A stretch of 64,000 bases of DNA from Deltaproteobacteria bacterium. Lineage in GTDB: Bacteria > UBA10199 > JACPAL01. This document shows positions 1 through 4,114 of this stretch, piece by piece (within the stretch, counting starts at the first letter, position 1; every line of letters starts with the position of its first letter). The position numbers were made by a program, and so were the translations under genes. The notes beneath the pieces are model-generated. The model was not told the origin of the DNA, ran no database searches, and worked only from the letters and a program-made list of their open reading frames with translations. The stretch is taken from positions 673,707-737,706 of the forward strand of contig JACPAK010000001.1 in assembly GCA_016180845.1 (NCBI GenBank). The letters run 5' to 3'.

Positions 1-3000
1 CGACCGCATTGGCAAAAAAATGTTGGAGACTGTGAAGAATAGGACCTGCAAGAATCGAGAGGGGGACGATCGGAAGGACAGGACCGATGCCTCGAAGTGT
101 TTGTCGGGTAGATGCAGGATTGTTATGAGGGTTGTCTTGTGTCGGGAGTCGTAAGGCCGGGATCGGGATCCCCTGCTGACGGAACCGGTCAAGTCGGGCG
201 ATATCATTCTGGGAGATCGGTTCTCCTCGCTCCAGTCGGGTCTGGATCTCCCTCAGACGATGGAAGGCGTAGATCTGCTGAAGTAGTTGGAGAGACGGTT
301 GGCCAGAAGGAATGCCAAGTTCACGCGCGATCCGGTTTCGGAAGCCAACCCAAACTTGCATGAAATAAGGAACCCATCCTCGGGGGATGCGTGACCTTTG
401 ATTCATTTCGGCAGGATCGGTTGCCAGAAAATCTGACGCATTTCGGATTCCATTCTCAGTTAAACTGGAATCATCTGCCATCCTGTCCTGATAATATTGT
501 TCGAACCGACGACTCCACTCATTGACAGTGAAGGGACCGATCTGGATATTCCCAACCGCCTCGGGGCCGGAGAGGTCAATCTCGGATGGTGGCTTTGCCT
601 CGAGCGAGAGGGTGAAGACGGGACCATCAAGGCCGAGTCGGATAACATCCCCCACCTCAAGCGGTTCATTTGGATCGACCTCGACCCAAACCGAGGTGAT
701 GATCGGGCGTCCCTTAAACGTCCCCCTTCCTAATTCTAATTCACGACGGGCGAGACGGTAGGTGCCAAATCCAAGAATCGGGTCTTGGGAATCTATCGCT
801 TTGTTTGCCTCTTCATCTTGACTCAAATCTTGGATATGCAGCCGCCCCTCACTATCGAGAAAAATTTTCGCCTGTTGAGATGCCAAGGGACTTTGAGGAC
901 CATCCGAGGGGTCGCGTCCGATCAGAACGGCGTCGGTTTCCGGTTCGATCGCTTCATTGAAATGCTGGTCCCCATTCCAACCTTCCCTTCGGATCCGATA
1001 ATGCGAGAGATTACGGCCCGGCTCTGCTTGAACTGTTCCCTGCCGGTTCCACGGGTTCCCTTCAGGGGTCAGCCCTCGGTAGTAGAGGAGATTCAGGATC
1101 GTTTGCGGGATATTTCCATCGAGATGGCTGATGAGCCTCTGGACCAATCGGTTTGCCATCGCTTCAGGGAGAAGCGAACGACGTGCTCCACGAATCTGGA
1201 TCAGTTTCCTTAAGATATTCTCCAATAGATCTTGGACCTGTCGGTCAGAGCGGAGGTCGAGTGGGTCATCCAAGTGACCGGCATCACGAAGCGCCCGTGT
1301 TTCCTCGTCCGTTAACTCTATCGGTGGCCTTGGGAGAGTTGTTGGAGAAGCATCCTCAGTCTGTATCTCTTTTGCCTCGACCTCTCCCCCTGCCGAATTA
1401 GCCTGCTGTACGATTTGACCCCGCTGGCGGACGTCTCCATTCGCGTTCGGATCGATCGGTTGTTTGGGAGAAGGGGTTTGCTGGATCCGACCTCCACCCG
1501 CCAACTCGGCGACAGCGCCGGTCTTGATCGCACCGGGGACCGAGCCGACGAAGCAGATCCGTGCGATCTCGGTGACCTCTCCCCAGGTCATCGCCGAGAA
1601 ATTTCCATCGAGGGTGCGACGAACATACTGATCGAGTATCTCTTCGACCGCCTCCATGCCGGCATCGGCAGCGAAGGTATGGGCAAAACCCGAAAACCCC
1701 TCGGAGGAGAAGCGTTGATAGAGTCTCATGACGATGTTTCGATGATTTGATTTTGGAATTCGGGCGAGCGCGGTGACCGCCATCGCGCTGCCAGTCGCGA
1801 GCGCATCCTTCACGAATTTTGCAAGCGTCTCATTCCCCTCACGGTAGCCGCCCGTACCGAGTTCGAGAAGATTATCTGCTGTGGAGGAGTAGGCGCCGAT
1901 CCCGAATCCACGTAATGCCCGCGTCCCGGCACCGATTTTTCGAGCATCATTGACAACGTTCGCCGCATCGACTGCCCTTTTGACTCGAGCGCCGGCGATC
2001 CCGAGGCGTGCCAGCGCCGTCGCCCCGCCGGTCACGAGTGACGGGATCACAATCTCTAAAGTTGTTTGAACAAGGCCGATCAGATTCTCTGCCCCATCCA
2101 TCTCGGCCGCGATCAAGGCCTCGTAAAGAACGCCTCCCTCTTTTAATTTTTCATAAAGTTCCTTGACCGTTTCTTCGACATGCTCGGTTTCGTAGGCGTT
2201 TTGAAGTTTGTAGATGAGCTGATCGATTTCAGACGTTGCCTTTTGGATGTCGGTGATATTCCCTTCCCCCGACCACCAGTTTCGAACCTGAGATCCGGCT
2301 CGAGAGAGCGCCTTGTGTTGCTGGTATCCCTGCCAGAGTTCCAGCTTGGTCTGTTGGAGAGCATCGATCAACTGACCAACCCCCTCTTGAAGCGGCTCAT
2401 CGACACGAAGATCCTTCTTCTCGAAGAAGACCGACTCCCCCATCTCATAGGCGGCGTTCATCTTGTCTGAATATTGGGAGAGTTGATCGAGAGGTTGGCG
2501 GACGTGGGACCTCATCTTCTCGAGATAGGTGGTGATGCTATTACCGGAGACGAGGTGCTTCGCACCGCTCTGGATCGGACTATTATCAAAGTTGAGAGGA
2601 CGTTTTAGCAGCGATTGAATCGCGTCGTTGATCCTTTTCAGGTCTTGATCGTTTTGAACCCGATCGAGCTCCGGCAGGATCTCCTCGACACCGCGGAGCA
2701 GGTGATGTCGCGCCGCCTGGATCTTTTTCCAATCGGTATCGACGGAGCCGTCATTCCAATTTCTCGCATCCGCCGCGAAAAGCCAGAGATGGGCAAGTTT
2801 GTTTTTGAGCTGGCTGACCGGATCTCTCTGGTCTTTTGTCTCTTCGACAATTTGAACAATCTTCTTCGTATCCCCGACCTTGACCTCCCGATATTCGATC
2901 GCTTCGTGATCGCCGCCCGTCACCTCTTCGGGGTGCTCCTGATAACGGCCCCGATCCTCCGCCTTGTTTTGCTCGAGACGATTCATCTCCTGAAAGAGAT

Positions 3001-4114
3001 GGAGGATGCCATCTTTTGCCGGCGCGATCTGTTCTTCTGTCGTGAGCCAGTTTCCGTAGTCGAGGTATTGATCGACGAAGCCGAAATTTTTGTCGATCTC
3101 ATAGACCCCTGAATCACCGACCTCTGCCTTTGCCGCAGCGGGGACCGCCTTGCAGATCGCGGCACGGAGTTTCAGGTTAAAATGTTTTTTGTCCTCGAGG
3201 ATCTTGAAGATCCGACTCCTCCCTTCGGGTGTGCCGATATGGTTTTGGACAAATCGATCGGCGTCGATGGCAATCAGATTGGCAGTGAAGCGTTTCAGGA
3301 GCTCCCGTGCCTCGTCCGGATCTCTCAACGAGGATTGGCGCTCTGGATGGGCCTGCTCGTAGATCAGTTCGAGGAGTGGCTGATATTCCCAGTTGCCCAG
3401 AAGGTCACGATACGGGAGAGAAAAGCTCATCCCATCGTTGATCTCGGAGTGGGTTTGGAGATACCGAACAAACTCTTCAAAATTTTTTGCCGGGATCCGA
3501 GTGAGATCGATCATTCCGGTCCGCGTGTGGGGTGCTAGAAGTTCCTTCAGTTCATTCGCGATCGGGGCGAGCGCCTTGATCTCGTCCGTCGATCGGGCGG
3601 GAAGAGGCTTCTTTGGTTTGATCTCGATCCATTGGCTGTTTCCGTACTCATGGTTGGAACGGGCGAGTTGCATCCCGATTCCTTGCCCTTCGATCAATTC
3701 GTTTGAGAGATCTTCAGCAGTGACCCATCGTTCGCGACCTCTTTGATCGACGACACAAATCCGTTCCGTAGAAATTTCCTTGATTGTTCCAATGACGCCC
3801 ATCTGGCCGTCCTTTTCCCATATGATTTCCTGACCGATCTCGAACGTGAAATAGTCGGAACTTGCTGCTGCTTGTTTGAGTTCCTGGATCGTCGCGATCG
3901 GGTGACCAAAAAGTCCGCCGCCAAGATTGGTTCGCACATCTCCGAGTCGCTTGGAGAGACGACGCGAAGAGGCCTGGTAGTGAGGAGCCTCCCCTGAGGG
4001 ATCATTGGGTTTTTTTTGTTCTGGTGAACGCGAAGGGGCAGTAGTCTGACTGTCTGCGGGGAGTTTGATCCCGCCGTTTGTCCCATTCCCACCAATTTTT
4101 TCCGATCCGGCCAA
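1..4114 (-). CDS. Giant hypothetical protein, over 1370 aa, with the C-terminus beyond the left window edge. The N-terminus is Gly-rich and there is a possible degenerate FHA-like segment.
   Basis: Manual minus-strand translation in the frame whose last full codon falls at 4..2 shows no stop codon from 4192 down to position 2. The ORF track omits it because it has no in-window stop. The proposed TTG start at 4114..4112 sits 6 nt after a GGAGGT Shine-Dalgarno sequence. The translation reads like a globular protein (for example EIGQEIIWEKDGQMGVIGTIKEISTERICVVDQRGRERW and LEIVIPSLVTGGATALARLGIAGARV). All listed short ORFs in 1..4100 are in other frames. Confidence 0.7.
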   Translation of the reverse strand, partial: MAGSEKIGGNGTNGGIKLPADSQTTAPSRSPEQKKPNDPSGEAPHYQASSRRLSKRLGDVRTNLGGGLFGHPIATIQELKQAAASSDYFTFEIGQEIIWEKDGQMGVIGTIKEISTERICVVDQRGRERWVTAEDLSNELIEGQGIGMQLARSNHEYGNSQWIEIKPKKPLPARSTDEIKALAPIANELKELLAPHTRTGMIDLTRIPAKNFEEFVRYLQTHSEINDGMSFSLPYRDLLGNWEYQPLLELIYEQAHPERQSSLRDPDEARELLKRFTANLIAIDADRFVQNHIGTPEGRSRIFKILEDKKHFNLKLRAAICKAVPAAAKAEVGDSGVYEIDKNFGFVDQYLDYGNWLTTEEQIAPAKDGILHLFQEMNRLEQNKAEDRGRYQEHPEEVTGGDHEAIEYREVKVGDTKKIVQIVEETKDQRDPVSQLKNKLAHLWLFAADARNWNDGSVDTDWKKIQAARHHLLRGVEEILPELDRVQNDQDLKRINDAIQSLLKRPLNFDNSPIQSGAKHLVSGNSITTYLEKMRSHVRQPLDQLSQYSDKMNAAYEMGESVFFEKKDLRVDEPLQEGVGQLIDALQQTKLELWQGYQQHKALSRAGSQVRNWWSGEGNITDIQKATSEIDQLIYKLQNAYETEHVEETVKELYEKLKEGGVLYEALIAAEMDGAENLIGLVQTTLEIVIPSLVTGGATALARLGIAGARVKRAVDAANVVNDARKIGAGTRALRGFGIGAYSSTADNLLELGTGGYREGNETLAKFVKDALATGSAMAVTALARIPKSNHRNIVMRLYQRFSSEGFSGFAHTFAADAGMEAVEEILDQYVRRTLDGNFSAMTWGEVTEIARICFVGSVPGAIKTGAVAELAGGGRIQQTPSPKQPIDPNANGDVRQRGQIVQQANSAGGEVEAKEIQTEDASPTTLPRPPIELTDEETRALRDAGHLDDPLDLRSDRQVQDLLENILRKLIQIRGARRSLLPEAMANRLVQRLISHLDGNIPQTILNLLYYRGLTPEGNPWNRQGTVQAEPGRNLSHYRIRREGWNGDQHFNEAIEPETDAVLIGRDPSDGPQSPLASQQAKIFLDSEGRLHIQDLSQDEEANKAIDSQDPILGFGTYRLARRELELGRGTFKGRPIITSVWVEVDPNEPLEVGDVIRLGLDGPVFTLSLEAKPPSEIDLSGPEAVGNIQIGPFTVNEWSRRFEQYYQDRMADDSSLTENGIRNASDFLATDPAEMNQRSRIPRGWVPYFMQVWVGFRNRIARELGIPSGQPSLQLLQQIYAFHRLREIQTRLERGEPISQNDIARLDRFRQQGIPIPALRLPTQDNPHNNPASTRQTLRGIGPVLPIVPLSILAGPILHSLQHFFANAV

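Follow-up and report, generated by a model that had tools for sequence, protein, structure and literature searches.

A deltaproteobacterial metagenome-assembled genome encodes a 1706-residue modular protein of an undescribed, possibly toxin- or effector-like family

The subject of this study is a giant minus-strand gene that crosses the left edge of a 64,000-nucleotide stretch, hereafter the window, in a metagenome-assembled genome (MAG) of a Deltaproteobacteria bacterium (assembly GCA_016180845.1, contig JACPAK010000001.1, positions 673,707 to 737,706). Completed beyond the window, the gene encodes a single chain of 1706 residues (P0001). We propose, as a reading evenly poised between right and wrong, that it is a modular polymorphic-toxin- or effector-like protein of an undescribed family that is exported, bears a warhead and acts on non-kin cells. 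The proposal draws on a long constant module (module A) shared with dozens of relatives, on tails that differ from relative to relative, and on a C-terminal cassette that probably adopts a nuclease fold. The parts of the gene that lie inside the window are as follows.

1..4114, minus strand: the first 1371 of the 1706 codons of the giant gene (P0001); the Logan contig L007 is 100% identical here and holds the remainder at its positions 4434-5440, past window position 1.
4112..4126, minus strand: start codon TTG (4114-4112) and Shine-Dalgarno sequence GGAGGT (4126-4121), separated by the 6-nt spacer CTAACT and kept in the syntenic relative L006.
3590..4114, minus strand: lineage-specific N-terminal head (residues 1-175), with a polar Gly/Pro/Ser-rich start and then a short conserved stretch, FEIGQEIIWEKDG… (residues 91-140).
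1460..3589, minus strand: constant module A (residues 176-885), about 710 residues, predicted to be all-helical (alignment A1).
2003..2092, minus strand: conserved hydrophobic segment in module A (residues 675-704, LIGLVQTTLEIVIPSLVTGGATALARLGIA), hydrophobic in 90% of 21 aligned members.
620..934, minus strand: 'FHA-like' stretch (residues ~1061-1165), inside the tail region without relatives (residues 886-1333).
35..91, minus strand: Pro-rich hydrophobic stretch (residues 1342-1360, GIGPVLPIVPLSILAGPIL), just before the C-terminal cassette.

The giant open reading frame (ORF) is a real, native and single gene. Translated on the minus strand, window positions 1-4114 give 1371 codons with zero stops, which confirms the continuous frame from TTG 4114 described in the initial annotation; an in-frame stop between positions 2 and 4114, which would have spoken against that frame, does not occur. 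From stop to stop, the open frame covers window positions 2-4192 (1397 codons), and the remaining five frames over the same stretch contain 22-59 stops each. The ORF was missing from the supplied list because the lister skips ORFs running off the window ends, as had been suspected. Its codon usage scores 0.295 bits per codon, as compared with 0.06-0.40 for the 23 other window ORFs (0.15-0.40 for 22 of them), and the guanine-plus-cytosine (GC) fractions at codon positions 1/2/3 are 0.63/0.41/0.58, a normal coding pattern that is slightly GC-richer than that of the neighbours. Both measures are in line with neighbouring genes, and the coding signal is even from end to end.

The Shine-Dalgarno sequence was found where the initial annotation had placed it, 6 nt before the TTG, and the NCBI annotation of P0001 begins at the same codon. 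The nearest in-frame stop lies ~26 codons upstream of this TTG, with two GTG and one TTG in between, and the Logan gene call begins instead at the GTG 22 codons upstream. In L006, the TTG, the GGAGGT and their spacing are kept, and a 1-nt indel upstream breaks the frame there; we therefore favour the TTG as the start.

Two sources complete the gene to the left of the window. NCBI lists the whole MAG protein, from a contig of 804,652 bp, as 'MAG: hypothetical protein HYT76_03520 [Deltaproteobacteria bacterium]'; its last 335 residues lie beyond window position 1, so that the earlier estimate of over 1370 residues holds as a lower bound. Independently, an exact look-up of the neighbouring VapC retrieved L007, which is 100% identical to window positions 1-7477, reaches 5440 nt further left, and carries the whole giant gene at 4434-9620.

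Nothing significant was obtained when the full protein was compared with Pfam, NCBIfam, PADLOC and PDB sequences, in keeping with the first impression that it has no nameable domain. A word-indexed search of 5.8 billion proteins with the ORF returned a sole match, P0001 itself; in the same kind of search a profile of module A retrieved only P0016, and a profile of the C-terminal part nothing. In contrast, an exhaustive phmmer/HMMER scan of 1.84 billion cluster representatives with residues 511-1706 found 74 representatives at E<=1e-3, 42 of them at E<=1e-30. The protein is thus not the orphan it was first taken for, and the case carries a lesson of method: a protein that looks like an orphan when 5.8 billion proteins are searched by word index may prove to have ~70 clear relatives under exhaustive scoring. 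A genome-contig scan with the whole protein gave no match, a search with the sub-alignment A2 gave five loci plus three metagenome loci, and tblastn of module A and of the C-terminal cassette against plasmids gave none. Every named source of the family is a MAG labelled 'Deltaproteobacteria bacterium' or 'bacterium', and one such MAG has at least two paralogues (L001 and L003).

The matches split into two separate blocks, A (residues ~175-885, an extent set with the full-length query) and B (residues ~1334-1700), and the residues between them, 886-1333, have no detectable relative. Module A is carried by 69 of the 75 retrieved proteins and sits near the N-terminus of proteins of 1200-5900 residues, the largest having 5914. 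Alignment A1 (21 members) has 27 invariant columns, and its motifs include LW[YQ]GY[KQ]QHK..SR, AAEMDG.EQ..G..QT, AENA.AV.SGEVR, W.KDA.ATG.SMA and EE..DQY.RQ.LDG. AlphaFold2 run on A1 predicts an all-helical module with a predicted local distance difference test score (pLDDT) of 69.8 and a predicted template modelling score (pTM) of 0.61; pLDDT is 70-90 over the first ~500 residues, and confidence is low around residues 675-704. After this conserved hydrophobic segment comes a Gly/Ala-rich linker whose length varies, and Gly/Ala-rich amphipathic segments flank the hydrophobic helix. Foldseek against the PDB returned only noise for module A, its profile matched nothing among PDB sequences, and Pfam gave no match in this region of ~20 scanned relatives. 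None of Pfam, NCBIfam, PADLOC and PDB therefore contains a description of module A. Cysteine is scarce in the family: it makes up 0.18% of P0001 and 0.26% of all family residues (127,341), compared with 1.38% in 27 other genes of the window, a depletion of ~5-fold.

The regions after module A are, on comparison of their sequences, hypervariable and mosaic, even between syntenic orthologues. Among 56 tails, only 43 of the 1540 possible pairs were similar at E<=1e-6, and in these the similar parts are shifted in position: the beginning of the P0062 tail, for one, resembles the end of the P0074 tail (64% identity). The Pfam domains found in tails are diverse. They include LRR_6 in P0003, FHA in P0005 and P0006, PLDc_2 in P0026, HEAT repeats together with five dynein-type AAA_5 domains in P0008, and HopA1 in P0009; HopA1 also occurs in P0057, a block-B protein. 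Transglut_core was found in L002 and L004, with LRR in the former and HEAT in the latter, and L005 combines Tox-ART-HYD1 (29.7 bits, cut-off 25) with TPR. The eukaryote-type part of this cargo would be unexpected for free-living groundwater bacteria and, if the reading proposed here is right, hints at how the lineage lives.

A case of tail replacement comes from L006 (GCA_016193425.1), where the gene order is kept: L9, DUF2232, S18, S6, pth, L25, prs, ispE, PIN, antitoxin and the divergent giant gene. Identities in the flank range from 88% (prs) through 74% (L25), 66% (DUF2232) and 65% (pth) to 60% (ispE). Up to residue 856 of P0001, the L006 giant gene shares 53-59% identity with it; beyond that point the two are unrelated, and the L006 tail has a genuine FHA domain. 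The tail has thus been swapped at an orthologous locus. Homologues with a common N-terminal or central part but differing C-terminal domains are what defines polymorphic toxins (PMC3482391).

The cassette at the C-terminus of P0001 lies outside the window. Block B also forms the C-termini of P0049, P0052, P0055, P0057, P0058 and P0071, six proteins without module A. Alignment A3 of the seven sequences shows, in order, invariant R, S, G, T-P-D, E, W, D, K, Q, F, G, G and H, with a conserved G...E in the preceding helix; the signature can be written GxxxE…PD…E.WD.K…Q within a terminal domain of ~300 residues. The AlphaFold model (pLDDT 84, pTM 0.87) has a ~165-residue helical bundle followed by a helix, three strands, a helix and a strand (model positions 171-190; 198-201, 215-219 and 227-234; 246-249; 257-263). 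The invariant model residues D214, E229, D232 and K234 correspond to D1618, E1633, D1636 and K1638 of P0001. In the prediction, the first helix carries E1585, D1618 lies where the second strand starts, the third strand bears E1633, D1636 and K1638, and the helix after it has Q1651. This predicted alpha-beta-beta-beta-alpha-beta core, with acidic residues and a lysine on the second and third strands, fits the PD-(D/E)xK layout. The signature of Tox-REase-1, -6 and -7 is E or GxxxE, D, ExK and Q (PMC3482391). Among the weak fold matches, those with names were repeatedly PD-(D/E)xK proteins in the PDB (BsaWI, MspJI, BsmI, McrC and a bunyavirus endonuclease), and Mrr-like, UL24, VRR-NUC and 'PD-(D/E)XK' proteins in BFVD; against PDB sequences the cassette members had no match. 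Taken together, the motif and the model make a restriction-endonuclease-like nuclease fold the probable identity of the cassette. Pro-rich hydrophobic stretches comparable to that of P0001 (residues 1342-1360) precede the cassette in P0052 (residues ~350-370) and P0058 (residues ~154-172) and may mark a junction or processing motif.

At the other end of the protein, the N-terminal head was found only in P0001, P0075 and L006, and its lone Pfam match is weak (Myosin_VII_N, E 0.055). The description of the N-terminus as Gly-rich needs tempering: glycine is enriched, but mildly, with 13 Gly within the first 100 residues. The suggested FHA-like stretch is doubtful. Pfam FHA (PF00498) gave no match even at E<=10, either on P0001 or on the excised residues 960-1206, and the best match of the stretch inside the family was the FHA domain of P0006 (E 0.23). 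Aligned with hhalign to the true FHA domains of relatives, it reached 15% probability over 16 columns, only along LEVGDVIRLG. The IGR at residues 1065-1067 and the closing L.VGD.IRLG are present; SQQA stands in place of SxxH, there is no NG, and ~45 residues are inserted between the two halves. We therefore lean against a functional phosphothreonine binder here.

Upstream, the giant gene is separated by its leader from a divergently transcribed vapBC-like pair.

4115..4300, minus strand: conserved non-coding stretch ahead of the giant gene (its leader or promoter region), recognised by nucleotide identity to L006.
4347..4583, plus strand: RHH antitoxin-like gene, 78 residues (RHH_4 and RHH_1 at E ~1e-3, under curated cut-offs), also called in L007.
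4561..4941, plus strand: PIN-domain VapC-like toxin gene, 126 residues (PF01850, E 1.5e-11), overlapping the antitoxin gene by 23 nt.

The leader, ~185 nt, is 77-83% nucleotide-identical to L006, as compared with 62-68% for the giant coding region and 78% for prs. Since a 1-nt indel separates the two leaders, this conservation is not at the protein level. It ends before the antitoxin gene. The leader contains a GGCATGCC palindrome and, beside the Shine-Dalgarno sequence, a CCCC-loop-GGGG hairpin; no Rfam family matched it, and it has no unusually stable fold (z +0.9). It is probably a promoter/operator plus 5' untranslated region.

The vapBC neighbour reported earlier is a real RHH and PIN pair, antitoxin first and overlapping. 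At the same position in L006, however, the PIN protein is 28% identical and the antitoxins have no BLAST similarity, while the flanks are 60-88% identical; the two pairs are therefore not orthologous but different cassettes in one variable hotspot. In L001 a third arrangement, an AbiEii/AbiEi pair, immediately precedes the giant gene (L001 7171-8554), so that three different toxin-antitoxin cassettes precede module A genes (window 4347-4941, L006 5423-6078, and L001). Among the neighbours scanned in L002-L005 there was no recognised toxin-antitoxin pair. The adjacency thus recurs, yet it does not demonstrate shared function and may reflect a hotspot effect or an association; for the window, the link to vapBC looks positional rather than functional. 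The initial annotation had argued from this adjacency to a toxin or defence role. A toxin-type role does fit the domains of the relatives, but the adjacency argument itself is weak, given that the two PIN/antitoxin pairs are not orthologous. Between vapC and ispE lies a gene for a BNR_4 (sialidase-like repeat) protein of 579 residues with a signal-peptide-like N-terminus (window 4909-6648, minus strand); this gene shares 33 nt with the 3' end of the PIN gene and has no counterpart at the L006 locus.

Downstream, beyond the left window edge, L007 shows three genes at 1356-4431 (233, 401 and 377 residues) convergent with the giant gene, the stop of the last being 2 nt away from the stop of the giant gene. 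No Pfam family is recorded for any of the three proteins, and all of them end in a hydrophobic segment resembling a tail anchor; the 401- and 377-residue proteins, 26% identical, are paralogues and contain an internal duplication. Relatives of these genes were not found near other family members. Because the downstream genes run convergently, the locus offers no immunity-gene candidate: no co-directional small immunity-type gene follows the giant gene on L007.

How might such a protein work? In the reading that we propose, delivery or membrane insertion/anchoring would fall to module A as the constant part, and the C-terminal cassette would be a PD-(D/E)xK nuclease warhead. The N-terminus of P0001 is polar and without a hydrophobic signal; since the protein lacks a signal peptide and cysteine is strongly depleted in its family, it would leave the cytoplasm by a non-Sec route. 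As its gene is not followed by a cognate immunity gene, its targets would be non-kin cells, whether prey, host or competitors. The neighbouring vapBC would be an independent cassette in the same variable hotspot. A more specific version, which we regard as unlikely, makes module A a self-contained membrane-insertion/translocation domain, like AB-toxin T-domains or type III translocators, that delivers a large, recombining range of cargo into other cells, among it nuclease, ADP-ribosyltransferase, PLD, transglutaminase and HopA1 domains, eukaryote-type LRR and HEAT repeats, and dynein-like AAA+ blocks; were this the true case, a predatory or host-associated lifestyle of these MAGs would be implied. 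If our proposal is correct, it adds a new constant module for modular toxins or effectors in bacteria known from metagenomes only, and probably a new clade of restriction-endonuclease-like warheads. Entry points for testing are the hydrophobic helix at residues 675-704 and the predicted catalytic residues E1585, D1618, D1636 and K1638.

Several observations weigh against the proposal. Neither the protein nor its surroundings supply an obvious way out of the cell: there is no trafficking or secretion domain or signal peptide in the protein (Pfam and NCBIfam gave no recognised trafficking domain in P0001 or in ~20 relatives) and no secretion apparatus in the 64-kb window, and cysteine depletion is a soft indicator of export, no firmer. 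An active cytoplasmic nuclease without an immunity protein would endanger its producer. Module A is internal in ~10 members, where it starts at residues 360-1065, and many tails are HEAT, LRR or TPR repeats and AAA+ ATPases of kinds also seen in cytoplasmic sensor and defence proteins. The L006 giant gene is split by frameshifts, lying at 6291-10704 in at least four frame pieces (tblastn frames 3, 2 and 3; gene calls of 554, 227 and 602+ residues), and may be a pseudogene or a MAG assembly error. As for the cassette, Pfam, which holds several Tox-REase and PDDEXK families, gave no match in any of the seven sequences (7/7), and no Foldseek match was significant, the lowest E being 1.1 in PDB and 0.11 in BFVD; the nuclease assignment is therefore one of motif, predicted topology and fold matches short of significance.

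A first alternative is an intracellular anti-phage or abortive-infection (Abi) protein, in which module A is an inner-membrane anchor, the tails sense infection and the ends destroy nucleic acids or nicotinamide adenine dinucleotide (NAD), the toxin-antitoxin and Abi neighbours marking a defence island. Such modules do lie directly upstream at three loci (vapBC in the window, the PIN pair in L006 and AbiEii/AbiEi in L001); nuclease, PLD and ART domains as well as repeat sensors are common in defence, and the lack of both signal peptide and immunity gene would be natural. We nevertheless consider this explanation unlikely. PADLOC-DB 2.0 gave no match (best AriA, E 0.15), the other flank consists of the housekeeping genes ispE, prs, L25 and pth and not of a defence island, and HopA1, eukaryote-type LRR_6 and dynein-like AAA_5 suggest effectors. 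Furthermore, a 5-fold cysteine depletion is unexpected for cytoplasmic enzymes, and sizes up to 5914 residues are atypical of defence proteins. Distinctly improbable, in our view, is a non-toxic giant scaffold or organiser associated with the membrane (envelope, cytoskeleton or signalling), whose tails recruit partners and whose nuclease-like end is inactive or serves ordinary DNA or RNA processing. Module A, at 53-59% identity to L006, evolves about as slowly as some housekeeping genes (60-66% for ispE, pth and DUF2232), many tails consist purely of interaction repeats, and the gene has a chromosomal syntenic position, native codon usage and a conserved leader. Wholesale tail replacement between syntenic orthologues and tails that are mosaic across the family argue otherwise, as do the bona fide toxin and effector domains in relatives and the invariance of the predicted acidic/Lys catalytic set in the cassette.

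The idea, to which the initial annotation pointed, that the giant protein and vapBC form one three-gene functional system draws on their adjacency with divergent transcription and on the PIN/antitoxin pair at the same position in L006. The dissimilarity of those pairs within flanks that are 60-88% identical, the leader conservation that stops short of the antitoxin gene, and the scan of L002-L005 neighbours without a recognised pair leave it very little room. An artefact, whether a chance frame or two ordinary genes joined by an assembly error, is scarcely credible. MAG origin permits assembly errors, and the relatives of the tail are not those of module A; yet the independent Logan assembly is identical over 7477 nt, whole gene included, the 1371 stop-free codons stand out from the other frames and have native codon usage throughout, and homologues show the same layout of module plus tail. 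Assembly and layout thus speak for one gene and not for the two adjacent genes that had been raised as an alternative.

The remainder of the window adds some observations in their own right. Two transfer RNA genes (Rfam RF00005) lie at 7798-7868, between ispE and prs, and at 20428-20501. A Big_5/CopC protein at 14058-15533 (minus strand) has an atypical codon-position GC of 0.44/0.60/0.52 and the lowest codon score in the window (0.057), together with a strong Pfam match. At 25494-32995 (minus strand) a tight four-gene operon encodes proteins of 307, 1245, 431 and 529 residues with no Pfam match at E<=1e-4, the 1245-residue protein having zero cysteine. The operon adjoins a 913-residue thrombospondin-type-3-repeat protein (33027-35768, 5.7% Cys), and a TSP_3 protein also occurs near the L003 giant gene. 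From 36554 to 64000 runs a long minus-strand series of genes with a GC content of ~44%, as compared with ~50% elsewhere, which includes ManC (37598-39004) and a 725-residue fusion of Zn-alcohol-dehydrogenase and Gfo/Idh/MocA oxidoreductase (48736-50913). We rejected the gene run at 39-64 kb as a flagellar or type III cluster: the 725-residue protein is the fusion just named, and two others have no PDB relatives. Sugar or polysaccharide metabolism, and not secretion, is the probable role of the region 36554-64000.

It is instructive to set the giant protein and its neighbours beside known systems. The neighbouring pair resembles type II VapBC, with a PIN toxin and a small RHH-like antitoxin that overlap, antitoxin first, but it is a unit separate from the giant gene. 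The cassette shares with the PD-(D/E)xK superfamily, and in particular with Tox-REase-1/-6/-7, a GxxxE in a helix, a PD at the start of a strand, D-x-K on the next strand and a Q in the following helix. It differs in having no significant hidden Markov model or fold match to any member, an extra invariant E.W before D.K, and the ~165-residue helical bundle, with an AW.W.RALA motif, ahead of its core. The membrane-inserting helical parts by which bacterial toxins are delivered, and type III translocators of the IpaB/SipB/YopB class, are, like module A, long and all-alpha, with an internal conserved hydrophobic helix, Gly/Ala-rich amphipathic helices and no Sec signal; module A showed no sequence or fold similarity to them, however, and no type III genes were seen in the window.

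The closest parallel is with polymorphic toxins. As in those, a constant N-terminal or central part, here module A in 69 proteins, is combined with diverse, recombining C-termini, and the same cassette recurs in otherwise unrelated giant proteins; Tox-ART-HYD1 occurs in relatives, and the end of P0001 carries the E/D/[DE]xK/Q signature of Tox-REase. The differences are also clear. There is no RHS, filamentous haemagglutinin, PAAR, LXG/WXG, MafB, TcdB/TcaC or other known trafficking module here, the constant part being instead a new module that is all-helical and includes a hydrophobic helix; no immunity gene follows downstream, and no cassette array is visible; and several tails of the family are long repeat or ATPase regions and not one small toxin. 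With two classical defining features missing, a known trafficking domain and an adjacent immunity gene, we describe the giant protein as working like a polymorphic toxin and not as a member of that class. Immunity-less, toxin-like giant effectors that endosymbionts aim at host cells have been described (Zhang, Aravind et al. 2012, PMC3482391), and it is these that match the gene neighbourhood of the giant gene.

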